From Nannocystaceae bacterium (GTDB taxonomy: Bacteria; Myxococcota_A; Polyangia; Nannocystales; Nannocystaceae): 64,000 nucleotides of DNA. The stretch is from positions 50,307-114,306 of the forward strand of contig JAWKRA010000004.1 of NCBI GenBank assembly GCA_041389865.1. Direction: 5' to 3'. A program made the position numbers and the translations under genes. Positions 3,299-15,147 of the stretch are shown piece by piece (position 1 is the first letter of the stretch; each line of letters opens with the position of its first letter). The notes beneath the pieces were generated by a model that did not search any database, was not told where the DNA came from, and saw only the letters and a program-made list of their open reading frames with translations.

Positions 3299-5800
3299 CA
3301 TGTCTCAAGAGACACAATGTCGAGAATTTTCAGGAATTTGACCGATTTTGCGCGTGACTTCCGAACCGACAACGTGATGATCGGCGACGACGGGCGCGTG
3401 CGCGTGATGGACTTCGGGCTGGCGCGAAGCCCCGGCGAGCTGAGCACGGCCGGCGACGTGACGCTCGAGAGCGACGGCCCGCCGAGCTCGAGCGCGGAGA
3501 GCACGGACACGCGACTGCTGAGCCAACCCCTGACCCGCACCGGCACGCTGCTCGGGACCCCCGCGTACATGTCGCCCGAGCAGTGCGCAGGGCGGCCCAC
3601 CGACGCTCGCAGCGATCAATTCAGCTTCTGCGTGAGCCTGTTCGAGGCGCTCTACAAGCAGCGCCCGTTCCCGTGCACGTCGATCGCCGAGCGCCTGCAC
3701 GCGATCGAGACGGGCACGGTCGCCGCGGTGACGCACGCCGGGGTGCCGAGCCGGCTGCATCGCGCGCTGCTCCGCGGCCTCGCGCGCGCTCCCGAAGATC
3801 GCTGGCCGTCGATGGACGCGCTGCTCGCCGCGCTCAGCGACGAGCCGGAGAAGCGCTGGCGACGGCGAGCCGCCGGCGCGCTGGCGACGGCGGTCGTCGG
3901 GGGCGGCGCGCTCACGCTCGCGCTCACGCTGAGCAGCGCCGCCGGGCAGGTCTGCGCGGGGATGGAGAAGCACGTCCAGGAGGTGTGGGGCCCCGACCAG
4001 CGCGCCGAGGTCCGCGCGGCGATCGAGCGCACTGGGCTCAGCTACGCGGCGGAGACGTGGTCGCGGATCGAGGGCGGCCTCGACGACTACACCGAGCGCT
4101 GGGTCGCGGCCCGCGTCGACGCCTGCGAGGCGACCCACAGCGGCGAGCAGTCCGAGCGGCTCCTCGATCTGCGGATGACCTGTCTCGATGAACACCTCGG
4201 TCAAGTCCAGGCCACGGTGCAGCTGCTGCGCGAGGCGGACGCGGACGCGGTCGAGCACGCGGCCGACGCCCTCGCCAAGCTGCCGGCGCTCGATCGCTGC
4301 GCCGACGCGGCGGCGCTCTCCGCCGAGGTCCCGCCGCCCGCAGACCCCGAGGTCGCACGGCGCGTCGCGGAGCTCACCAGCATGTTCGTCGACGCCGAGG
4401 TGCTCGCGCGCGTGACGAAGTACAGCGAGGCCCTCGAGCTCGTCGGGGCGGTGGCGAGCGAGGCGAGCGCGCTTGACTACGCGCCGCTCGAGCTCCGCGC
4501 GCGGCTGCTCGAGGGGGAGCTCCAGCGCCAGACAGGCGAGCACGCGCTGGCCGAGGCGACGTTCGAGCGCGCCTACGACGGCGCGCTGCGTCGCGGGATG
4601 ATCCCCGAGGCCGCCCGCGCAGCGATCGAGATCACCGTGCTCCTCGGCACCAACCTCGCGCGCCCCGAGGACAGCGCGGGCTGGGCCAGACACGCCGAGC
4701 TGCTGAGCGAGGCTGACGGGCGGGAGGTCGCCCAATCCCGCTTCCTCCGCTACCGCGGGCTCGTGAGCACCGCGCAGGGTGACTACGCTGCAGCCTACGC
4801 GGACTACGAGCGCGCGCTTGCGATGAGCGAGCGTATGTACGGGCCCGATCACCCCGCGGTCGCGACCGCGTTGAACAACCTCGGGAACGCGTGCCAGAAG
4901 CTGGGGCGCTTCGACGAGGCGCTCGGCTACAACGAGCGCGCGCTGGTCATCGACGAGCGCACCCACGGCCCGGGTCACCCGTTCACCGCGACGTCCTTGT
5001 TCAACCTGGGCACCGTGGCCAAGGCCAAGGGCGATCTCGACGCGGCCGCGCGCTTCCACGAGCGCGCGCTGGCGATCCGCGAGCGCGCCCTCGGACCCGA
5101 GCACCCCGACGTCGGCGGATCGCACAACAGCCTCGGCTCGATCGCCAAGCGCCGCGGCGATCTCGACGCGGCCCAACAGCACTACCTGCGCGCGCTGAGC
5201 ATCTTCGAATCGCACTTCGGCGGCGATCACCCCTACGTCGCGGGCGCGCTGACCAACCTCGGCTCCGCGGCCCGGAAGCTGGGGAATCTCGAGCAGGCCC
5301 GCGCGTACCTCGAGCGCGCGCTCGAGATCTCCGAGCGTCGCCTCGGTCCCGATCACCCCAACCTGGGCATCACGCTGTCGAGCCTCGGCGAGCTCGCGCT
5401 CGCGGAGGGCGACTACCCACGCGCCCGCGCGCGCTTCGAGCAGACGCTCGCGCTGTTTGAGCGCTCGCTGGGTCCCGAGCACGCTGCGGTGGCGGACACC
5501 GCGACGAACCTCGGCGTGGCGCTCCTGCACCTCGGCGACCCGAGCGCGGCGCTCGTGCACCTCGAGCGGGCCATGGAGATTCGGGCCAAGACCGAGTCAG
5601 CGCCCGACGCCGCGGCGGAGACCCAGTTTCGCCTGGCGCAAGCGCTGTGGGACGCGCGGCCGACCGGCGCCGATCGTCGACGCGCGCTCGAGCTCGCGGA
5701 GAAGGCCGACGCCGACGCCGTCGCCAGCGGCGTCAAGGATGAGCTGCGGGCGGAGATCGAGGCGTGGCGCGCCGCGAGGTCGACCACGCGCGATCGCTGA
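3299..5800 (+). pseudogene. 5'-truncated Ser/Thr protein kinase fused to a TM segment and TPR_12-type repeats
   Basis: Frame opens at 3299 directly after a stop. The first residues are kinase subdomain VIb onward (DFRTDNVMIGDDGRVRVMDFGLAR, GTPAYMSPEQ), with no Gly-loop, Lys or Glu N-lobe. A TM stretch and repeated TPR units follow (NLGN..G..D.A....RAL.I.E...GP.HP). The gene abuts the integrase start. Confidence 0.55.
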
Positions 5801-5951
5801 GCCCGAGGCCGCGTGACCCGCTCCCGAATGGGAGTGACGGGCGAGCGGCTTGGCGGCCGTCCACGACGGAGCGACACGGGAGCGCGGCCGCGAACGAAAA
5901 CCACTACGCGCAGAGGAACAGCCGCAGTACCGTCAGGAGGTCACGATACCC

Positions 5952-7319
5952 ATGCGGATCGCCTCCCCATTCGCGCTCGTGTGTCTGGTCAGCGTCTCGC
6001 CGCTGCAACCACGCTCGTGCTGCGACGGCGAGCCTGTGGAGACCTGCACGACCGACGCGTCCGCCGAGGAGGCGTGCCCGAGCAGCGGCGACCTCAGCAC
6101 ATCGGAGAGCGCTGGAGACACGGACGCACCCATCGCCGACGCGGTCGCGATCGACATCGCCGCGGGCGCGAATCACACCTGCGCGCTGCTGACAGACGGC
6201 AGCATCCGCTGCTGGGGGAGCGCAGCGTTCGGCCAGCTCGGCCTGGCGAGCACCGAGGACATCGGTGATGACGAGCTCCCGAGCTCGGCGCCCATCGTCG
6301 ATCTGGGGTCAAAGGCGACGCAGTTGGCAGCCGGAGAGGCGCACACGTGCGCGCTCCTGGAGGACGGAGAGCTCCGCTGCTGGGGACGCGGCGACTCGGG
6401 TCGGCTCGGCCTCGGCGACACCCAATCCATCGGCGACGACGAATCGCCTACCTCCGTCCCCCTGGTCAACGCCGGCACGTCGCGCGTGCTCCACGTCGTA
6501 GCGGGAGGCGCACACACCTGCATCGTCGCGTCGGGTGGTTCGATTCGTTGCTGGGGCAGCGGCGAGTTCGGACAGCTCGGCCTCGCCAACACGGAGGACA
6601 TCGGCGACACCGAGCCGCCGAGCACGGTCCCGCCCCCTGGGGTGCCCCCGTCCGCGGGGCTTACGGCGGGGCAGGCTCACACCTGCAGCGTCGCGCCGGG
6701 CGGGGAGGTGTACTGCTGGGGTCAAGGGCAATTCGGGCAGCTCGGGCACGCGTCCACGGACGACATCGGCGACGACGAGTCGCCGCTCGACGCCGGTCCC
6801 GCGAGCGTGGGCAGCGGGATTGCGCTGGACATTGCAGCCGGTGACGCTCACACGTGCGTGTTGATCTTGAATGGTGTCGTTCGCTGCTGGGGTCTGAACA
6901 GCTCTGGCCAGCTCGGTCTGGGGAGCACGGAGAACCTCGGCGACGACGAATTGCCGACCTCTGCGTCAACCGTAGCGCTCGACGGAGACGTCGTGCAATT
7001 GAGCGCCGGCGGGAGCCACACCTGCGCGCTCCTGGACAACCGCGAGGTTCGCTGCTGGGGCAGCGGCGAGTATGGTCAGCTCGGGCACGGGAGCACGGAG
7101 AGCGTCGGCGACGATGAAGCGATCATCACCGCGCCGCTCGTCGACGTCGGCGGGCCTGCGAAGCAGCTGACCGCCGGCCGACACCACACCTGCGCGTTGT
7201 TGGAGGACGGCTCGGTGCGCTGCTGGGGACGAAGCAATTTCGGTCAGCTCGGCTATGGGGACCAGGAGACGCTCGGGGATGACCCAGACGACGGCGCGCC
7301 TCCTCCGGTGTCGCTGTAG
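5952..7319 (+). CDS. RCC1-repeat (regulator of chromosome condensation-like) secreted protein
   Basis: About seven repeats of the form HTCAL..DG..RCWG...GQLGLG. ATG at 5952 with AGGAGG 11 nt upstream, and an N-terminal signal peptide. Confidence 0.85.
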   Translation: MRIASPFALVCLVSVSPLQPRSCCDGEPVETCTTDASAEEACPSSGDLSTSESAGDTDAPIADAVAIDIAAGANHTCALLTDGSIRCWGSAAFGQLGLASTEDIGDDELPSSAPIVDLGSKATQLAAGEAHTCALLEDGELRCWGRGDSGRLGLGDTQSIGDDESPTSVPLVNAGTSRVLHVVAGGAHTCIVASGGSIRCWGSGEFGQLGLANTEDIGDTEPPSTVPPPGVPPSAGLTAGQAHTCSVAPGGEVYCWGQGQFGQLGHASTDDIGDDESPLDAGPASVGSGIALDIAAGDAHTCVLILNGVVRCWGLNSSGQLGLGSTENLGDDELPTSASTVALDGDVVQLSAGGSHTCALLDNREVRCWGSGEYGQLGHGSTESVGDDEAIITAPLVDVGGPAKQLTAGRHHTCALLEDGSVRCWGRSNFGQLGYGDQETLGDDPDDGAPPPVSL

Positions 7320-7455
7320 ACGGCCGCCGACGCGATCGATCCATGGAGCGGTCGCAGCAAACCACGACGAATGCGGCGATCCTTGCGCTCCCTCGCCCGC
7401 CGCGGGCCGGGTGCGAGTGACCTAAACTTCGGGGCAGGTTTTGATCGCGACGCGC

Positions 7456-7887
7456 TCACTTCGCGCAGCAGAAGATGTGGGCCTCGCGGTCGCGAACCTC
7501 CCCCGTCTTCGCGTCACGCGAGGAGTAGTGCGCGCGGATGCCAGCTTCACAGCCCATGGACTCGGGGAAGTCACCCAAGCCGGAGCCGGCGTACGCGATC
7601 TTGTCCTTGCAGTGCTCGTCGTACTCGGGCGTGCGTCTCACGTCCTCGGAGAGCCCGGCTGGCGTGACCGCCGGCGCCGTCTCTGGGGTGGCCGCTTTCG
7701 TCTCTGGGGTCGCTGCTTTGGTCTCTGGAGTCGCCGCTTTGATCTCTGGAGTCGTCGCCTGCGGCGTGGGCGTGGGCGCCGATGCGGGGGCCGTGGGAGC
7801 CTCCTCGGGGTCGACCGCCGTCGGGCTCGGATCGCAGGCCAACGAGGCGGCTCCAAGGGCCAGCAGCGTGATCCACGTGAGTCGCAT
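7456..7887 (-). CDS. Lipoprotein with TPETKAA tandem repeats
   Basis: Signal peptide and lipobox MRLTWITLLALGAASLAC. The repeat ATPETKA is encoded by three 21-nt tandem DNA copies at about 7690–7760. Confidence 0.6.
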   Translation of the reverse strand: MRLTWITLLALGAASLACDPSPTAVDPEEAPTAPASAPTPTPQATTPEIKAATPETKAATPETKAATPETAPAVTPAGLSEDVRRTPEYDEHCKDKIAYAGSGLGDFPESMGCEAGIRAHYSSRDAKTGEVRDREAHIFCCAK

Positions 7888-8000
7888 GCTGCGAGCGTAC
7901 GCGATTCTCCACGGAGCTGCCCCGTGCTCCTCTCGCCACCCAGGCGCCGGGTCGCGGCGCGAAATCGTGCGACTCCTTGACCCTGTGGAGCGACCGACCG

Positions 8001-8354
8001 TCACCGATCGTCTTGGCTCGCAAGCGCCCCGAACACCGACTCCACCGTCGGGTCCCCCGCCCAGCGCTCGGAGTGGCAGTAGTTGCGGAGGGCCTCCACC
8101 AACTTGATGTCGGGCTCCTGCCCGATCGCGCTGACGACCTCTCGCTCGGTGAGGCCGCGCTGTCGGAGCGCGTCCAGGAGGCCCTTGAGGTGGCGAGCGA
8201 CCGCCTGCGCGAGCGCGTCGCCAGACTCGCGGGACCGGTCACGCTCCGTCAGGAGCCGCCGCGCGAACCGTTCGGGCGCCATGAGACCGGCCTGGGCGGC
8301 GACCCACGACCTGTGCCGGATACGCTCGAGGTGGGCGAAGTCGTCGTCAGTCAC
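8001..8354 (-). CDS. Hypothetical helical protein
   Basis: ORF overlaps the downstream lipoprotein gene by 4 nt. No motif recognised. Confidence 0.4.
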   Translation of the reverse strand: MTDDDFAHLERIRHRSWVAAQAGLMAPERFARRLLTERDRSRESGDALAQAVARHLKGLLDALRQRGLTEREVVSAIGQEPDIKLVEALRNYCHSERWAGDPTVESVFGALASQDDR

Positions 8355-8559
8355 GCTCGCAGACTACCGAGCAGAGATCGGGGCGACAAGGCGCGGGGCG
8401 TCGGCCAGGAGCAAGTCTGAGGAGTCCCGCGACGTTGTGCGACGAACGGAGCGTCGAGCGATCAGCGACGACGCCGATGCGCAGAGCTGCCCAACCCGCG
8501 TCGGTGACCACGAGCACGCGTCGGGCGGCGGACGTCGCGGGGCGTCCTCGGACGCGCTC

Positions 8560-10074
8560 TTACCGGCGACGCCAGTAGGCGCCGCGAACGAGCGAGGCCG
8601 CCGCGCCGAGCACGAGCGCGCTGGGCAGCCACACAGGGAGGGTCCCCGCGATCCCGAGCAGCACGCTCGAGACGCCGAGGCACACGCTCGCGGCCGCGAG
8701 GCAGACTGCCACGAGTCCGAGGCTCCTCGCACGTGTCCTTGTAGACAGCTCACTTCCACGCCGGCGTGCCGCCAGCACCCGCGCGCCGTAGACGAGCAGC
8801 GCGACGAGCCCGAGCGCGACCAAGCCGAGCATGACAAGGCCCAGCGCGCCGCCCCACCATACGCCCCCGGAGGAGGACACGCCGGTCGTCGCGCGCGTGA
8901 TGAAGCCGCGGATGAATTGCACGGGGCCGTCGCTGGGCGCCGCGAGGTGCGGAAAGGACGTCTCCGGCGGTCGCGTCGCTCGATCGACGCCGTCGCGGAG
9001 CCCGGGCTTGCGGCCGCGATGGACGAGCAGCGTGAGCAGCGTGTCCATGATGTCATCGTCGAGCGCACGACCGCCGCAGCTCTCGCTGCGCTCGCCGCGG
9101 AGGAGCGCCGCCTCGATCGCAAAGAAGCCGACGCCGGTGCAGCCGGGCGCCGTGTCGACCACCAGGAAATCGGCGAGCAGCAGCTCCACCAGGGCGTTGC
9201 GATCGGCCTCGGGCCACTCCTGCGCGCCGTCGATGCCGTCGTACCAGTCCACGTTCTCACGCAGCCGCGCGCGATAGTCCGGGAGGTTCTCGGCGGCGAC
9301 GGCGAACGGCTCCTCCGCGTTGTAGCGCGGCTTCAGCTCGACGCGATCGCGGGCCACCAGGCACACGTTGGTGATCTCGGGTCGGCCGACGCGATCGAGC
9401 CGCCGCGTCTCGCCGGAGCCCTCGTCGGTGGTCACCGTCTGCGCCGCGACGGCCAGCAGCGAGCCCGCGCCCGCGCCGAGCTCCGCGGCCACGTCGACCT
9501 CGAGGGCGACGCTCAGCACGTTCATGTCCTCCAGGCCGTTGTCGTCCCGCGGCGGGAGCAGCACGCCCCGCTCGCTCACGCTCGAGAACCACGGCGTGTT
9601 GAGGAAGAACGGATCGGAGCGACGCCCGGCGAACACCCGGAGCCCGCTCGACGGCGCGACCTCGTCGATCGCGTCGACGTCGGCCGAGACCACGGTCCCG
9701 GCGGTGCTCTGGCAGGTGACGCGATGGGTGGCGAACCATCCGTGGGGCGTCTCGAAGCTGCAGGAGATGCGATAGTCACCGACGGTGTCAAAGCCCGCCG
9801 AGCGCCCGACGCCGCGAATCGCCGCGCGCCGAAGCAGGAGCTCGTAGCGCACCCGATCGGAGAAGTGCCCGCGGCGGCTCACGAGCGGGTAGACGTTCAG
9901 GATCACGGTCAGGTGCCCTGGACGCCCGGCGGTCGGGAACGCGAACAGATCGGTGATGTCCGAGACGGGCTCCCCGATCGCGATCGGTCCGTCGACGTGA
10001 TCGCTGGCGCGCGTCACCCCGAGCGGCGCGAGCGCGACGAGCAGCGCCAGCGCCCCGACTCGCGACCCCGTCAG
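8560..10074 (-). CDS. DUF4331-like secreted protein with C-terminal TM helices
   Basis: Mature N-terminus SDHVDGP follows signal peptide SRVGALALLVALAPLGVTRA. Motifs DLFAFP and SDPFF match the DUF4331 family. No ATG, GTG or TTG precedes the signal peptide. The only start candidate is a CTG at 10074 that overlaps the upstream stop as CTGA. Confidence 0.55.
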   Translation of the reverse strand: MTGSRVGALALLVALAPLGVTRASDHVDGPIAIGEPVSDITDLFAFPTAGRPGHLTVILNVYPLVSRRGHFSDRVRYELLLRRAAIRGVGRSAGFDTVGDYRISCSFETPHGWFATHRVTCQSTAGTVVSADVDAIDEVAPSSGLRVFAGRRSDPFFLNTPWFSSVSERGVLLPPRDDNGLEDMNVLSVALEVDVAAELGAGAGSLLAVAAQTVTTDEGSGETRRLDRVGRPEITNVCLVARDRVELKPRYNAEEPFAVAAENLPDYRARLRENVDWYDGIDGAQEWPEADRNALVELLLADFLVVDTAPGCTGVGFFAIEAALLRGERSESCGGRALDDDIMDTLLTLLVHRGRKPGLRDGVDRATRPPETSFPHLAAPSDGPVQFIRGFITRATTGVSSSGGVWWGGALGLVMLGLVALGLVALLVYGARVLAARRRGSELSTRTRARSLGLVAVCLAAASVCLGVSSVLLGIAGTLPVWLPSALVLGAAASLVRGAYWRRR

Positions 10075-11825
10075 CGCGGCACCTTGTTGAAGTGGCCCTG
10101 CCCCAGCTTCACGACGTCGGAGATTGAAGGCATCAGGAAGTACCCGCTGCCCTTGACCGTGGTGAAGCGCCGCATTCCGGTGCACCGGTGCCGCAGCGGC
10201 GCGGCCGGGATCGTGAACGTGGGAGGGTTCATCCCGCTCTTGCCGGGCCCGTCGTGCTGGCCGACCAGGGGATCGGCGTCGCTGTCGAGCCCGGCGAACT
10301 TGCCGTTGTTGCACCACTGCTGCTGCACGAACTCGAACTGTCGCTCGATGTCGGCGTTGAAGCACAGGAAGTGAACACCCCGCTTGAGGAAGAAGAGCTG
10401 AAAGATCCGCCGCGCGTCGTCGTCGAGGCCGAGCTCGTCCTGGAGCCGCTCCGCGGCCGCGCGCTTGTCGACCTCGCAGAGCAGCAGCCGCTCGACGTCG
10501 TCGTGCCCGACCGCCGCGACCAGCTTGGCGCGGACGCGCTCGATCTCGGCCTTCGCGATCTGCGACAGCGCCCTCGTCACCTCGGGGAAGCGGTAGGTGT
10601 CCATCTGCTCCCCCATCATCGGCGGCCCGTAGGTGCGCCCGCGCCGGAGGATGCGGTGGAGGTTGGACAGGCGCAGCGACTCCTCGGGCGTCGCGCCCAG
10701 CTCCCAGCTCCGCGGGTTGCTGCGGCGAATGTGGGCGCCGAACGGGCACCCCTCGCCCTTGGGGTCGTTGACGTAGTCGAACTCGTCGAGCTCGTTGTGG
10801 AACTCGGCGAGCCGGCGCCGGTACATCTGCAGCATGCGGTCGAGGATCCCGCGCGGCACGGCCTCCTCCTGCAGCGCCGGATCGCCGTGGCCCTCCCCGC
10901 GCTCCCGCCAGTGGACCGCGAGCGGATGTCCCTCGGGCCAGCGGCCGACCATCTTGCTCGCCAGCGCCACCGCGGCGTAGGGCACCTCCTCGCTCGCGCC
11001 GCCGGCCGCGTGGTCGCAGCAGTACTGCCAGAACCCGAGGACATCTTGCTCGAGCTGGCGGAACACCAGGTAGCTGCCGTTCCTGCCCAGCTCGAGCCGC
11101 TCGCGCTCGTGGCCCGGCGGCGCGTAGGTCGGCACCAGCGAGGTGCGCCCCTTCCCGAACCCGTTCTCGTAGCCGAGCACGAACTCGCCGGGCGCGACCG
11201 TGTTGCCACCATACTCGCCGCCGACATCGCCGACCTGCGGCTGACCGATGAGATCGCGGAAGCCGAAGTGCTCCTTGTTGTCATTGAGCAGCTGCGTGTC
11301 GAGGAACGCGACCAGCTCCATGCCGTACTCGCGCTCGGCCCGCGCGACGAAGCCCTCGGGGCTCGGCTCGGTCTCCTCCCGCCAGTTCTCGTTGTTGAAG
11401 TAGGCCAGCAGGATCATGTGCACGTCGGTGCCGTTCTGCGCGGAGCCCCAGTTCCAATGGCAGGACTCGCTGGCGTCGACGTCCCCCAGGATGCGGGCGC
11501 GGTACGGCGTGTCCGAGTCCTCGACGAACGCCGGCGGGAACGCGTTGACGAGCCCCGGCTCGACCCCGAGCGCCACGAGCCCGCTGTAGCTGAACGCGAC
11601 GTTGTAGAAGGCCTCGTTGGTGCGTCGCTCGGCGGCCTGCTGTGACTCCTGCGCCTGCTTGGCGCTGGTGATGAGGTGCTGATTGTCGACGAGCCAGCGC
11701 CGCGTCCGCGCCGCGTCCTTGATGCGAAACAGCAGGAAGTAGCCGACGAGCTTGTCGAAGTAGGTGTCGAGGACGGCCCCCTGAATGTCGTCAAGCGGGA
11801 GCGCGCTCTGTCCTTGGCCGCTCAT
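10071..11825 (-). CDS. DyP-type (dye-decolorizing) peroxidase-like protein, long form
   Basis: N-terminal DDIQGAVL. HFGFRDLIGQP resembles the GXXDG distal-Asp motif. CPFGAHIRRSNPR resembles the proximal-His motif. C-terminal QFEFVQQQW. ATG at 11825 overlaps the upstream stop (ATGA), with GGGAGG 5 nt upstream. Confidence 0.5.
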   Translation of the reverse strand: MSGQGQSALPLDDIQGAVLDTYFDKLVGYFLLFRIKDAARTRRWLVDNQHLITSAKQAQESQQAAERRTNEAFYNVAFSYSGLVALGVEPGLVNAFPPAFVEDSDTPYRARILGDVDASESCHWNWGSAQNGTDVHMILLAYFNNENWREETEPSPEGFVARAEREYGMELVAFLDTQLLNDNKEHFGFRDLIGQPQVGDVGGEYGGNTVAPGEFVLGYENGFGKGRTSLVPTYAPPGHERERLELGRNGSYLVFRQLEQDVLGFWQYCCDHAAGGASEEVPYAAVALASKMVGRWPEGHPLAVHWRERGEGHGDPALQEEAVPRGILDRMLQMYRRRLAEFHNELDEFDYVNDPKGEGCPFGAHIRRSNPRSWELGATPEESLRLSNLHRILRRGRTYGPPMMGEQMDTYRFPEVTRALSQIAKAEIERVRAKLVAAVGHDDVERLLLCEVDKRAAAERLQDELGLDDDARRIFQLFFLKRGVHFLCFNADIERQFEFVQQQWCNNGKFAGLDSDADPLVGQHDGPGKSGMNPPTFTIPAAPLRHRCTGMRRFTTVKGSGYFLMPSISDVVKLGQGHFNKVPR

Positions 11826-13627
11826 AATTGCCTCCCGTGCAGCGCGTTGAGCCACTCCTGCGCGGACACACCCTCAAGATCGGCGAGCCCCCTGCGAGTG
11901 ATCGTGTTGTCATTGATGTTGCGAATCGACAGGCCCGGGTACGCGCTGTACCAGACCTGCGTCGGGATCTGGATGTGTCGGGCCCAGGCCTTGAAGCGAT
12001 CGGCGTCCTCCGAGCCGGCGTAGAGCAGGTCGCGGGTGCGCGGGTAGCCGACGGTGTTGCTCCACACCGCGGTGAGCCCGGTGCTGGCCTTGTCGATGAA
12101 GTCGCCGAGGTAGCTCTGCCACGAGCTGTCGAAGTTGCTGAGGAAGAGCGCGTCCTCCCCCTGATTGATCAGCACCCAGCGCGCGAAGTGGATCGTCGGG
12201 ATGTCGCCCAGCTTGCCCTTGTTGTAGACGGTCCGCGCGAGCAGCTGGAGCGCGTAGAAGACCCCGCGGATGAGCAGCGCCCGAAACGCGCCCGCCTTGA
12301 GGACCGCGATGTTCGAGAGCTGATTCTGGTAGAAGCGATTCTCGTCCCGCGACGAGCGCTCGGACAGCGCGAACTCGACCTCGGTGTAGTACGGCTCGAA
12401 CGGCGGATCGGTCGCCTCGAGGGCGTGGAGGTGCCGACGCGCGCGCCGCTCGAGGTAGCTCAGGATGACGACGATGATGGTCACCGCGAGCGTCAGGACC
12501 GTGAACGCGTAGCACCAGTCTATCAGGGCAGGTTGATGAAAGTCGGGCGTGGCGACGATGAGCGCCGCCACGGCGACGAACCCCGTCAATGCCAGCGACA
12601 GCCGCCAGGACCGCCACGGCGCGGCCGCGATGATCGCCGCGGCCGCGATCGCGAGCTGGAGCTGCCAGCTGAAGGTCGTCAGGCGATCCCAGGACGCCAG
12701 CATGGAGCCGACGAGGCTCGTGATCACCAGGAGCCCGACGACCGCGCCGCGGATCAGCCACCCAGGCTCCGGGAGGATCAACTTGAGGTAGCGATAGACG
12801 ACCAGCGCGGAGAGGCCGACCGCCACCGTCATGCTCGCCGTGGAGAACCACGATGACGCCTGCGGCCAGAGCATCCAAAACAGGTAGTTGCCGGTGGTGA
12901 CGAGCAGGAACACGAGCAGCAGCAGCACCACCAACCCGATGACCTTCAGCGTCCACTGCGGCCCCGCGAAGATCGAGGGCTGCGGGGGAAACACGGGCGG
13001 CCGCTCGCCGAGCGCCTCCACGATGTCGCGCCGGATCGCCACGGAGTCGTTGGGCGGCCAGCCGGGCTCTCGCTGCTTGCGGTCAATGACCTCGTCCACG
13101 CGGCGCCGCAGCGCGGCCTCCCCGAGAATCTGGTCGCGGCTGCGCCCGGGCGCGCCCACGTAGAAGGTGGAGGACGGATAGCGGCGATCGGGCGCGCTCA
13201 GGAACGCCTCGAGCGACCGACGGAGGCTCTGCGGATCGTCGCCTTCGGGCGCGTACCCCTCGCAGCACTCGTAGAGGCTGTGGAGCGCCGCGTAGGCGTG
13301 CTCGACCACCTCGGCGATGTGCCGCCGCAGGGCCTCGTCTTCGCTGCACCGCTCGTCGCCGACCGGACCGTCGTAGTTGGTGGAGAACACCAGCTGCGGC
13401 CCCGTCATGAAGCCCCGATGGCTGTCGATGAGGACCCACCGGGCGAAGTGAACCGTCCGCATCGCGGCGAAGGGCACGGCGGTCGCGGTCGCCTCGCCCT
13501 CCATCAACGCGATCGTCTCGCGTCGAATTCGGTCCAGCAGATCACGCAGCCTGGCGAGACGCTCCCGACGCACGCGAACGATGACGGTCAGCGAGAACTG
13601 GCTTGTCGGCGAGCTCGGCAGATCCAT
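11822..13627 (-). CDS. Integral membrane protein with a duplicated HFARWVLI motif domain
   Basis: Two soluble domains each contain (T/I)HFARWVLI, separated by roughly six TM helices. It is the first gene of the coupled three-gene operon. Confidence 0.55.
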   Translation of the reverse strand: MDLPSSPTSQFSLTVIVRVRRERLARLRDLLDRIRRETIALMEGEATATAVPFAAMRTVHFARWVLIDSHRGFMTGPQLVFSTNYDGPVGDERCSEDEALRRHIAEVVEHAYAALHSLYECCEGYAPEGDDPQSLRRSLEAFLSAPDRRYPSSTFYVGAPGRSRDQILGEAALRRRVDEVIDRKQREPGWPPNDSVAIRRDIVEALGERPPVFPPQPSIFAGPQWTLKVIGLVVLLLLVFLLVTTGNYLFWMLWPQASSWFSTASMTVAVGLSALVVYRYLKLILPEPGWLIRGAVVGLLVITSLVGSMLASWDRLTTFSWQLQLAIAAAAIIAAAPWRSWRLSLALTGFVAVAALIVATPDFHQPALIDWCYAFTVLTLAVTIIVVILSYLERRARRHLHALEATDPPFEPYYTEVEFALSERSSRDENRFYQNQLSNIAVLKAGAFRALLIRGVFYALQLLARTVYNKGKLGDIPTIHFARWVLINQGEDALFLSNFDSSWQSYLGDFIDKASTGLTAVWSNTVGYPRTRDLLYAGSEDADRFKAWARHIQIPTQVWYSAYPGLSIRNINDNTITRRGLADLEGVSAQEWLNALHGRQL

Positions 13628-14028
13628 GTCTTGCTTCTCCGCGCGACGCCGGGGCGGCGCCGAATCTCAGCCTCCACGATCGAGTGATTGCGAGCATAGA
13701 AGACCACTGCGACATTGCAAAGGGTTGGGCGATTCACAGCGGAGCGCGGGCGATGGAATCGGCGCGAGAACGCCCGCGCGCGGCGAGCCGCGGCGCGATG
13801 GTGGATGGCGGGTGTCGCCAGCTTGACGCGCCGTCATGGGGCGTCATCGCGCGTCGGTCGAGGGGCGCCGAGTGTCACGAGTCAGCCAGCGCCGGGTCAC
13901 AGCATGAAGCGATCTGCAACCGGCGGTGGTTCGGCTCCATCGGCCTGCGCGGCGTGGAGCCGCGGAGCGAGCTCCGAGTTCACAGGGCCGCGCGACTCGA
14001 TCTGCGCGTCACCGATCGCGCGCGCCCC

Positions 14029-14688
14029 TCAGTCCCGGTCGGGCGCGCCCAGGGGGAACAACGGCCGATACGGCCGGGCCTCCTCGACCGCGCGCGCGAA
14101 CGAGGGGCGGTCCAAGAGGCGCGCTCGATAGCCGCGCAGCCGCGGGTAGCCCTCGGCGATCGGATGGGTCCAGTCGGCGTAGAACAGCGACGGCGCGGCG
14201 GCGCAGTCGGCCAAGGTGAAGTCGCTGCCCGCGGCCCAGGGTCGGTCGATAAGCTGTCCTTCGAGCCATGCATATGCGCGCTCGAGCTTCTCGGTGGCGA
14301 GCGCGAGCCCCTCTCGGCGCTTCCCAAGATCGCCGGTCAGCGCCCCGTCGACCGCGTGCTGGGCGGCGTTCATCACGTGCAGATCGAAGAAGCGATCGAG
14401 GAAGCGCACGGGGAGCGCGGCCCTCGGATCGGCGGGCAGGAGCGCCACGGGTCCCGGGTGCTCGAGCTGCAGGTGCTCGATGATGATGCTGGTCTCGACG
14501 ACGCTGCGCTCGCCGTCGACCAGGAGCGGGAACTTGCGCAGCGGCCAGCGCCGCAGCCACTCGACGCTGTGCTCGGGCGTCTCGGGGCCAATGCAGCGAA
14601 ACGAGAACGGGGTGCGATTCTCGTACAGGGCGATGAGCACCTTCTGCGTGTAGGAGGAGAACGGGTGACCGTAGAGCACGAGCGCCAT
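14029..14688 (-). CDS. Glutathione S-transferase
   Basis: N-terminal thioredoxin-like fold (MALVLYGHPFSSYTQKVLIAL) plus a C-terminal helical domain, with the usual GST length. Confidence 0.85.
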   Translation of the reverse strand: MALVLYGHPFSSYTQKVLIALYENRTPFSFRCIGPETPEHSVEWLRRWPLRKFPLLVDGERSVVETSIIIEHLQLEHPGPVALLPADPRAALPVRFLDRFFDLHVMNAAQHAVDGALTGDLGKRREGLALATEKLERAYAWLEGQLIDRPWAAGSDFTLADCAAAPSLFYADWTHPIAEGYPRLRGYRARLLDRPSFARAVEEARPYRPLFPLGAPDRD

Positions 14689-15147
14689 CGGAGAGCTCGT
14701 AGTGCAGGTCATCGGCGCGTGGCAAGGGTCTCGACGCGGCGGACCACGGAACGCCGCGCGTTCGGTCGATCGTGCAGGTGCGCGCTACGAGCGATGCAGT
14801 CAGCGACGCCAGCCCGTCGTCGACGCAGTGGGTGAGGCGGTCGCGCGACGCACCCATCGAGCCGCAGGCACGGACTGCATCGACGTCGCCCAGGCAGACG
14901 GGCGCCGGGGTGCCGACGACATCACCGGGCCGTCGTCGTCGCTCGCCGAGCTCGCGACCACGACGCCCGCGCACCGACGCACGCGCCGTCTCAGGCCGAG
15001 CGCCCGACGACGGACGTCGACGCCGCCTGAGCGCGCCCCAAAGCGACGCGAGGTTGATCGCCGACGTGGCGACGGGGGCGATCGTGCGCCGCGGCTGTCG
15101 ACGACGCTGCTGCTACGCGCGCGCCGTCGACGACGACGCCCGCGACA

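Follow-up and report, generated by a model that had tools for sequence, protein, structure and literature searches.

An HFARW-domain protein paired with a DyP peroxidase across bacterial phyla, and a DUF4331 gene probably joined to the pair by deletion in a Nannocystaceae bacterium

DyP peroxidases have been studied intensively for the oxidation of lignin and dyes; most bacterial class V enzymes still await assignment of a role in the cell. The DUF4331 family has, to our knowledge, no known function. Both families meet in a stretch of 64,000 nucleotides from a Nannocystaceae bacterium (assembly GCA_041389865.1, contig JAWKRA010000004.1), here called the window, which has a G+C content of 70.8%. 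Three successive co-directional open reading frames (ORFs) occupy its minus strand: g1 (11822..13627; 601 amino acids, aa; ATG start), g2, the DyP gene (10071..11825; 584 aa), and g3, the DUF4331 gene (8560..10074; 504 codons when counted from a CTG, with a frame that is open far into g2). An original prediction, made from the letters alone, had described the three as a coupled operon and a membrane-linked haem peroxidase module. The three-gene observation is largely borne out by the comparisons presented here; its interpretation appears to need re-centring on the pairing of g1 with DyP. We read the locus as a conserved g1-DyP unit plus a DUF4331 passenger, which was probably welded on by a deletion that cost it its start codon (probability about 0.72).

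The closest described system is mentioned in a 2022 survey of DyP diversity. It lists an "unexplored subclass V4" in which a P450 comes first, some transmembrane (TM) regions follow and a DyP forms the C-terminus (PMC9719856). A literature search for a described DyP-P450-ABM cluster returned only this remark. Relatives of g2 adjoin a P450 or are fused with one, with membrane segments between the domains, and this fits the V4 description. The window DyP itself does not have the V4 architecture: it is a stand-alone protein of 584 aa with two inserts, it contains neither a P450 domain nor a TM segment, and its P450 partner appears to have been deleted. In the V4 publication the region that flanks the TM segments was not recognised as a conserved two-domain family. 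Our comparisons suggest that this region corresponds to the g1 family, which would explain the TM regions noted in subclass V4.

The middle gene is best described first. As the original prediction supposed, g2 is related to DyP: it scores 43.3 bits (5e-11) against PF21105 (DyP_N), above the curated cut-off of 27.5, and 63.6 bits against TIGR01413 (NCBIfam Dyp_perox_fam), below the cut-off of 100.5. Class V structures are matched by phmmer over the N-terminal, middle and C-terminal parts with E values from 8e-40 to 1e-10. The best match in the Protein Data Bank (PDB) is 8re2 (E 8e-40; 8re2/8re3 together ~1e-39); g2 also aligns to the ancestral D-type 7anv, the fungal AauDyP 4au9, AnaPX 5c2i and DyP2 4g2c. 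The alignment to 8re2/8re3 locates the distal Asp in EHFGFRD (11253-11273), the proximal His in AHIRRSNPR (10710-10736) and the distal Arg in ILRRGRTYG (10626-10652), all on the minus strand. The final Gly of GXXDG is Leu in g2 (GFRDL); the wild-type-like 8re2 has Met in this place. The protein is not twice the size of a normal DyP, as had been stated. Class V DyPs have ~500 aa (PMC9719856), and the nearest relative of known structure has 442 aa; with 584 aa g2 is ~15-30% above class V DyPs, and the surplus is accounted for by two inserts, ~aa 310-343 and 403-480. Hydropathy indicates neither a signal peptide nor a TM segment. Judged from these similarities, g2 is most probably a cytoplasmic class V (C/D-type) DyP-type haem peroxidase in which the catalytic His, Asp and Arg are kept.

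The first gene, g1, had been described as a membrane protein with a duplicated HFARW motif and left without a family. These statements are correct. The motif is present as RTVHFARWVLID at aa 60 (13424-13456) and as PTIHFARWVLIN at aa 480 (12164-12196; minus strand in both cases), and the duplication extends to whole domains, which are homologous according to hhalign (probability 99.1%, E 7.8e-19, 147 columns). AlphaFold2 (AF2), hhalign and the homologue alignment delimit an N-type alpha+beta domain, aa 1-222 (12962..13627), and a C-type alpha+beta domain, aa 396-601 (11825..12442). Between them lies a membrane linker, aa 223-395 (12443..12961), recognised by AF2 helices and hydropathy. The structure prediction, which had been proposed as a check of the HFARW domains, returned a confident model (predicted local distance difference test, pLDDT, 86.7; predicted template modelling score, pTM, 0.84), in which each part has a beta-alpha-beta-beta-alpha...beta unit and the stretch that connects the parts forms six helices. 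Hydropathy resolves five segments in the linker, and there is a weak, sub-threshold match to Pfam 7TMR-DISM_7TM. From AF2 and hydropathy we read the linker as six TM helices; both soluble domains would be cytoplasmic.

An alignment of 64 homologues shows how unequal the two domains are. In the N-type domain only H60 and D86 are invariant. In the C-type domain, the most conserved portion of g1, these are E429, Q434, N435, K444, R449, H480, W484, N498, D500, W503, Y506 and D509. In each domain the model has the invariant His opening strand 2 and the invariant Asp closing strand 3, so that the two should be neighbours in a hairpin.

The family is large. Ninety g1 homologues were found; the relatives include 10 full-length proteins of ~601-641 aa, many of ~420 aa, and fusions of 928-950 aa which carry DyP. 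With a 64-member g1 profile a search of 1.84 billion proteins returns 4079 cluster representatives at E<=1e-3, of which 1447 reach E<=1e-30. The membrane linker is not conserved within the family: in most relatives the two HFARW domains are separate small proteins of ~200-230 aa, the ~420-aa relatives have a much shorter hydrophobic linker, and the two Vibrio split proteins examined show no obvious hydrophobic segment. Across these sequences the membrane anchor evidently is not a feature of the g1 family as a whole.

Neither g1 nor the 420-aa relatives nor the split Vibrio proteins match any Pfam or NCBIfam family, ABM (PF03992) and SchA_CurD (PF04486) included. A PDB sequence search with the g1 family profile A2, from which g1-DyP fusions had been removed, yielded nothing significant; the DyP structures which were retrieved with profile A1 are an artefact of the natural g1-DyP fusions it contained. 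The fold is another matter. The model places two ferredoxin-like beta-alpha-beta units in one barrel, as is characteristic of ABM and dimeric alpha+beta barrel proteins, and the two soluble domains of g1 are predicted to pack together as one ABM-like alpha+beta barrel. Thus, going by the model, g1 would have the fold of the dimeric alpha+beta barrel superfamily, yet by sequence it is a member of no described family. Its identity to ABM and SchA-CurD-like proteins (WhiE-ORFI 9lmn, AbxO 9ltx and the tandem putative monooxygenases 3f44 and 3mcs) is 6-13%. Unlike in these, the g1 halves are separated by a membrane linker or reside in two genes, and the genomic partner is DyP, not a type II polyketide synthase.

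The partnership of g1 and DyP is the central result. We collected 80 loci via DyP homology; ~85 loci were considered in all. The 80 loci come from Acidobacteriota, Gemmatimonadota, Pseudomonadota (several classes), Bacteroidota, Planctomycetota, Verrucomicrobiota, Actinomycetota and Myxococcota. A g1-family ORF is located directly upstream of DyP on the same strand in 77 of the 80 loci. Most frequently it comes as two separate ORFs of ~200-230 aa (51/80); one upstream g1-family ORF was detected in 21/80, and in 5/80 the g1-family part is fused to DyP. The three loci without an upstream g1-family ORF include two on truncated contigs. Where there are two ORFs the order is C-type, N-type, DyP in 47 of 51 cases. 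Looking from the g1 side the picture is the same: all three distant homologues checked are immediately followed by a DyP-like gene, one of them in the company of a P450 as well, and among nine long g1-family members seven are fusions of the type g1-DyP and one of the type P450-g1.

The genes are also tightly spaced. For the 72 loci with separate genes the g1/DyP junction is -4 nt in 16, -8 nt in 8 and between -1 and +2 in 5, i.e., 29 in total. In the window the g1 stop and the DyP start share the ATGA at 11822..11825 (minus strand; the junction reads ...GGCAATTATGAGC...), just as the original prediction had it, and an identical -4 ATGA overlap exists in the relatives L001, L081, L082 and L085. 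A stop codon which overlaps a canonical start is the mark of a termination-reinitiation pair, and this one is a textbook ATGA (PMC6728339, PMC12548453). At the level of sequence and gene order, then, g1 and DyP are shown to form a pair that is conserved in gene order, coupled in translation and repeatedly fused. As they form such a tightly coupled unit, the designation membrane-linked haem peroxidase module is fair for g1 plus DyP in this genome; it does not extend to the family at large, in which the anchor is not general, nor to DUF4331. The synteny check divides along the same line: the g1-DyP pair is conserved across phyla, DUF4331 is rarely nearby.

The pair is often joined by a P450. One P450 subfamily is present in 34 loci, sometimes in the open frame of DyP and sometimes followed by a GST-like ORF. 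In Vibrio penaeicida (L046, 3204-11339) the succession is P450, C-type, N-type, DyP, a patatin-like lipase of 771 aa and a FadL-type outer-membrane channel. A FadL/TodX-type channel follows the module in five gammaproteobacterial and zetaproteobacterial loci (L046, L027, L033, L034, L047). In some gammaproteobacteria the lipase and FadL genes nearby may be a sign that the substrate is lipid-derived or otherwise hydrophobic. We envisage that the g1 barrel would be a stoichiometric partner of DyP at the cytoplasmic face, tethered to the membrane here by the six-helix linker. Its conserved C-type pocket would bind or convert a hydrophobic substrate or cofactor, and DyP, and the P450 where present, would then oxidise what g1 handles. 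In its full form this proposal says that the HFARW pair is an obligate, hitherto unrecognised heterodimeric ABM-like subunit of a class V DyP clade and that, together with the P450 and the GST-like protein, it forms a haem-enzyme pathway at the cytoplasmic or membrane face for a hydrophobic, possibly lipid-derived substrate. We give this proposal slightly less than an even chance.

Could g1 itself be a haem protein? Families that bind haem are well known among the dimeric alpha+beta barrels: IsdG/MhuD, chlorite dismutase and DyP. As an IsdG-like barrel that degrades or binds haem, or as a degenerate paralogue of DyP, g1 might serve as haem chaperone or electron-transfer partner for DyP and P450. 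The fact that both partners of g1 are haem enzymes agrees with this, as does the invariant His and Asp of each domain, which the model predicts to be hairpin neighbours. However, there is no sequence or profile similarity between g1 and DyP; when the g1 domains were compared by hhalign with an alignment of 84 DyP sequences the probability was <1%, and we have discarded the idea of a DyP paralogue. In addition, the N-type His is lost in a Vibrio homologue. A haem-binding g1 thus is a doubtful proposition, and we continue with the substrate- or cofactor-binding barrel.

Some other neighbours of the pair deserve mention. A protein of ~606-611 aa is encoded directly upstream of g1 in L082 (5059-6879), L083 (2881-4716) and L001 (2242-4077); in L082 and L083 it carries eCIS_core (PF13699). 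The window lacks this protein and has a GST upstream of g1 instead (14029-14712), 400 nt away. In two Bacteroidota loci with 420-aa g1 relatives (L090, L091) g1-DyP adjoins a ~1690-aa Ser/Thr kinase-GAF-guanylate cyclase protein, a SnoaL_2 protein and a catalase, a setting that would fit oxidative stress or signalling in this phylum.

The third gene, g3, is a clear DUF4331 member, as predicted (PF14224, 1.8e-28, 100.4 bits, cut-off 27); NCBIfam contains no match for it. It has the family's SDH(V/I)DGP block and adds a C-terminus with three TM helices. In alignment A3, which comprises 52 DUF4331 proteins, it holds the consensus residue at all 17 invariant columns, and the near-invariant residues are reported present as well. 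The AF2 model has a pLDDT of 88.8. A putative signal peptide is encoded at 10006-10074 (minus strand), with a hydrophobic core at aa 6-24 and an AxA-type cleavage site between TRA and SDH. It aligns with the signal peptides of homologues; what is missing is its start codon. The predicted mature N-terminus, SDHVDGP (9985-10005, minus strand), is the block S-D-H-(I/V)-D-G-P, which occupies this position in the A3 members shown. Exported members have a signal peptide that ends in A ahead of SDH; the others begin with M-S-D-H, M-S-H-H or M-A-D-H. A protein whose free N-terminus reads X-X-His has the ATCUN pattern for binding of Cu or Ni. In the model the SDHVDGP segment of g3 has low confidence and probably is flexible. 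If real, the X-X-His N-terminus of the aligned DUF4331 proteins is a lead to a metal-binding function.

At the other end, hydropathy identifies the three C-terminal TM helices at ~8566-8865 (minus strand). They assign g3 to a small branch, P0092-P0097, with ~110 extra C-terminal residues and three TM helices. A strongly positive loop (ARVLAARRRGSELSTRTRARS) succeeds the first of the three helices, and the positive-inside rule predicts that the large domain is outside the cell. With the large domain outside, an export signal would be needed.

Does g3 belong to the peroxidase module? DUF4331 genes occur near DyP in the window and its sister assembly, in L081 and L085, and in L013. The last, a distant Bacteriovoracaceae locus in which the gene is convergent, is the only DUF4331 case among the 80 loci collected by DyP homology. 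In all, only 4 of ~85 loci have DUF4331 near this DyP clade, and the three-gene operon cannot be upheld as a conserved unit. The nearest relatives outside, P0094, P0095 and P0100, have no DyP nearby and lie in unrelated neighbourhoods. Because DUF4331 is rare near the DyP clade and its outside relatives are in unrelated contexts, we treat g3 as a passenger and not as part of the module, a judgement made on gene neighbourhoods. A literature search for DUF4331 returned no paper.

How the passenger came aboard can be read from the junction. On the minus strand the DyP stop lies in a CTGA at 10071..10074, within ...AAGGTGCCGCGCTGACGGGG..., as originally described. That this CTGA is an A-to-C sequencing error in an ATGA, a possibility the original prediction wished to see excluded, is not borne out: the independent assembly GCA_020431275.1 (L084), 99.6% identical to window 5365-14009 (8.6 kb; 19 substitutions, two indels), has exactly the same junction. 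One of the two indels is an 8-bp intergenic one upstream of g1 (13865); the other, at 6624-6635, is flanked by Ns in the sister assembly and probably reflects an assembly problem.

Among informative relatives the closest is L081 (GCA_020431265.1), with a g1 80% identical to that of the window. Its gene order is g1 (601 aa), ATGA, DyP (611 aa), a P450 of 682 aa on the opposite strand which carries an N-terminal GST-like domain, and then DUF4331, which opens with ATG (MRSRAGVLALLLALAPRGVTHA, followed by SDHVDGP). A local DNA alignment of the window against L081 reveals a scar, AACAA, at 10084..10088 (minus strand). On its 5' side the window agrees with the final part of the L081 DyP gene as far as GGCCACTTC (window 10089). 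On its 3' side it matches the L081 DUF4331 leader from GGTGCC on, ungapped. About 2.2 kb of L081 are missing in the window, i.e., the DyP tail, the P450-GST gene and the intergenic region. A move of the P450-GST gene to another place in the window was considered and ruled out by tblastn, which detected no homologue of the module P450 or GST in the 64 kb; the GST at 14029-14712 was not recognised as related to the module GST sequences.

The window DyP consequently has no stop of its own. It reads GTG CCG CGC TGA from the former leader and thereby gains the extra residues VPR; for comparison, the L085 DyP ends ...TTCGGCAAGTGA. L081 has a five-codon mini-ORF at 12746-12766, ATGGTGCCTCGGCGATGA (MVPRR plus stop), the stop of which overlaps the DUF4331 ATG; the final codons of the window DyP, (K)VPR plus stop, are the remains of a mini-ORF of this type. 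The sequence CTGACG (10069..10074, minus strand) contains CTG (10074-10072), the DyP stop TGA (10073-10071) and ACG (10071-10069), such that TGA overlaps CTG by two bases and ACG by one. In the ungapped alignment ACG is the positional counterpart of the L081 ATG, and CTG is opposite GCG. Because L081 has GCG there and its ATG aligns with ACG, the CTG is not the descendant of a start codon, and a view of it as a mutated ATG is untenable. In L085 an AAG is at the position of the L081 ATG, and the DUF4331 start is ~16 codons further upstream.

Other members of the clade show that the spot is unstable. L082 and L001 possess the opposite-strand P450 after DyP and have no DUF4331. In L085 the P450 is gone, and a remnant of its 3' end plus a 250-nt spacer precede DUF4331. 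A comparison of L085 4264-4515 with L081 10560-10640 shows a loss of P450-GST with breakpoints unlike those of the window. It seems that the P450 was deleted at least twice independently within this small clade. Read from these alignments, the CTGA junction was left behind by gene loss; it is a scar, not the product of design. A deletion of ~2.2 kb would have removed the DyP stop, the P450-GST gene and most of the region upstream of g3; the ancestral ATG of g3 would now be ACG, with no canonical start left beside the signal peptide.

The opposite view is that the three genes are a designed, co-evolved operon, with DUF4331 serving in the peroxidase module and CTG as an adapted initiation signal. 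It can point to the common direction of all three genes and their overlapping junctions, to the presence of DUF4331 near g1-DyP in the window, L081 and L085, which are the three closest lineages, and beside DyP in L013, to the Shine-Dalgarno (SD)-like AAGGTG before CTG, and to the identity of the junction in two assemblies. Yet DUF4331 is absent from ~80 other module loci and from L082 and L001 of the same clade, P0094, P0095 and P0100 live in unrelated neighbourhoods, and the deletion accounts for the junction base by base. Further, the CTG has no start-codon ancestry: L081 has GCG opposite it, and L085 has AAG at the position of the L081 ATG. A cytoplasmic DyP would also share no compartment with an exported DUF4331. 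We consider a designed operon very improbable and retain the deletion as the origin of the junction.

Where translation of g3 could begin is a separate question. The original prediction maintained that no in-frame ATG, GTG or TTG precedes the signal peptide. This is true for the 36 codons directly before CTG, which contain no canonical start, but not beyond: the nearest upstream in-frame canonical start is GTG 10183..10185 (minus strand), 37 codons before CTG, and further GTGs follow at 10314, 10317, 10365 and 10749 until the frame closes at 11283. A start at GTG 10185 would add 37 residues from an alternative frame of the DyP 3' end, and no SD-like sequence lies ahead of it; we regard it as very unlikely. 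Tat export from this start was considered and rejected: the RRR of the extension is 17 residues from the hydrophobic core, unlike S/T-R-R-x-F-L-K. Likewise rejected was a frameshift fusion of DyP and DUF4331; no slippery heptamer is seen at the junction, and the signal peptide would be buried in a cytoplasmic enzyme.

The next canonical codon downstream, GTG 10015..10017 (minus strand), is inside the signal peptide. It is the start that NCBI assigned to P0091 of the sister assembly, which gives a protein of 485 aa, MTRASDH..., with the signal peptide lost. Were it the true start, g3 would have no signal peptide and the DUF4331 domain would be cytoplasmic. From the junction onward no canonical start comes earlier, the automated call selected it, and a whole branch of DUF4331 proteins without signal peptide starts with M-S-D-H. 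However, MTRASDH leaves the X-X-His block three residues away from the N-terminus, unlike any A3 member shown, and the N-termini examined from the subfamily with C-terminal TM helices (L081/P0092, P0093, P0095, P0097) bear signal peptides. The positive loop after the first C-terminal TM helix likewise predicts a large domain outside, and no SD-like sequence precedes this GTG. We judge a start at GTG 10017 unlikely; the sister assembly would then be a case in which automated annotation removed a signal peptide.

What remains beside the signal peptide is the overlap itself. The SD-like AAGGTG at 10081..10086 (minus strand), read from the sequence, is 6 nt upstream of CTG and 9 nt upstream of ACG. 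The DyP/g3 junction thus has the same geometry as known termination-reinitiation pairs, with an SD-like motif inside the upstream gene; it differs from them in the overlap CTGACG, as CTG and ACG are not canonical starts and the restart codon would be CUG or ACG in place of AUG, GUG or UUG. Restart by terminating ribosomes at overlapping stop and start codons is established (PMC6728339, PMC12548453); in these two sources we found no natural coupling which depends on CUG or ACG. For de novo initiation in E. coli, CUG reaches ~1-2% of AUG, with 0.02-3% across constructs, and ACG belongs to the group with 0.1-1% of AUG (bioRxiv 10.1101/063800). If g3 is exported, ribosomes which end DyP would restart at CUG or ACG with low efficiency, aided by AAGGUG. 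Tentatively, and with considerably less confidence than in the deletion itself, we put this restart forward as the secondary reading, in which the DUF4331 protein would be kept alive here only by CUG or ACG at the DyP stop. A promoter and terminator scan of 7300-14900 found no site; at 71% GC in a myxobacterial genome such a scan is uninformative.

A further possibility is that g3 is no longer translated to a useful level. Having lost its promoter region and its ATG, it would be an early pseudogene which has not yet acquired disabling mutations. It is the only DUF4331 member examined that has no canonical start before its signal peptide, and its own upstream region is deleted. Losses have occurred repeatedly at this spot in the clade, the P450 in L085 and the window, DUF4331 in L082 and L001, and near-cognate starts deliver at most a few per cent of AUG (bioRxiv 10.1101/063800). 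Against a pseudogene speak the intact 17 of 17 invariant residues and the signal peptide, which retains its hydrophobic core and AxA-type cleavage site. Moreover, in the direction of transcription g3 now lies behind an operon on which purifying selection acts: a comparison of the two near-identical strains gives 4 synonymous and 0 non-synonymous changes for DyP (3 synonymous and 2 non-synonymous for g1). The stop/start overlap with its SD-like motif makes a restart plausible (PMC6728339). Silencing of g3 is a possibility we take seriously, though we think it rather unlikely, and restart at CUG or ACG, only slightly more probable, stays our tentative choice.

Several observations weigh against the picture of a g1-DyP unit with a DUF4331 passenger and against the roles proposed for its parts. 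The adjacency in L013 may reflect a weak functional link between DUF4331 and DyP. A physical complex of g1 with DyP is inferred only from synteny, coupling and fusions. Lipid-linked neighbours are scarce: FadL was seen in 5 loci, and the confirmed case of a patatin-like lipase is L046. The split homologue of Vibrio reads TYLARF, without the N-type His, and a symmetric two-His site is not general. As for the fate of g3, it has 0 differences between the two near-identical assemblies and hence is uninformative on selection since the start was lost, and an open frame of 504 codons means little at 71% GC.

In our estimation the undescribed barrel family, a near-universal partner of one DyP clade, is the more valuable result, and the interest of the CTGA is moderate. 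The g1 family is a concrete missing partner for the co-expression of DyP and offers a gene-neighbourhood handle on the natural substrate. The junction serves as a worked example of how a deletion may weld an unrelated gene to an operon at the price of its start codon.

Further downstream g3 is followed by two small genes, which also follow DUF4331 in the sister assembly: a 117-aa ORF (8001-8354) and a 182-aa ORF (7456-8004, minus strand) with the short tandem repeat TPEIKAA TPETKAA TPETKAA TPETAPA. On the plus strand an ORF of 489 aa (5850-7319) has many repeats of the form G..HTCAL..DG.(I/V)RCWG...GQLG after a Cys-rich N-terminal segment; they resemble RCC1/beta-propeller repeats.

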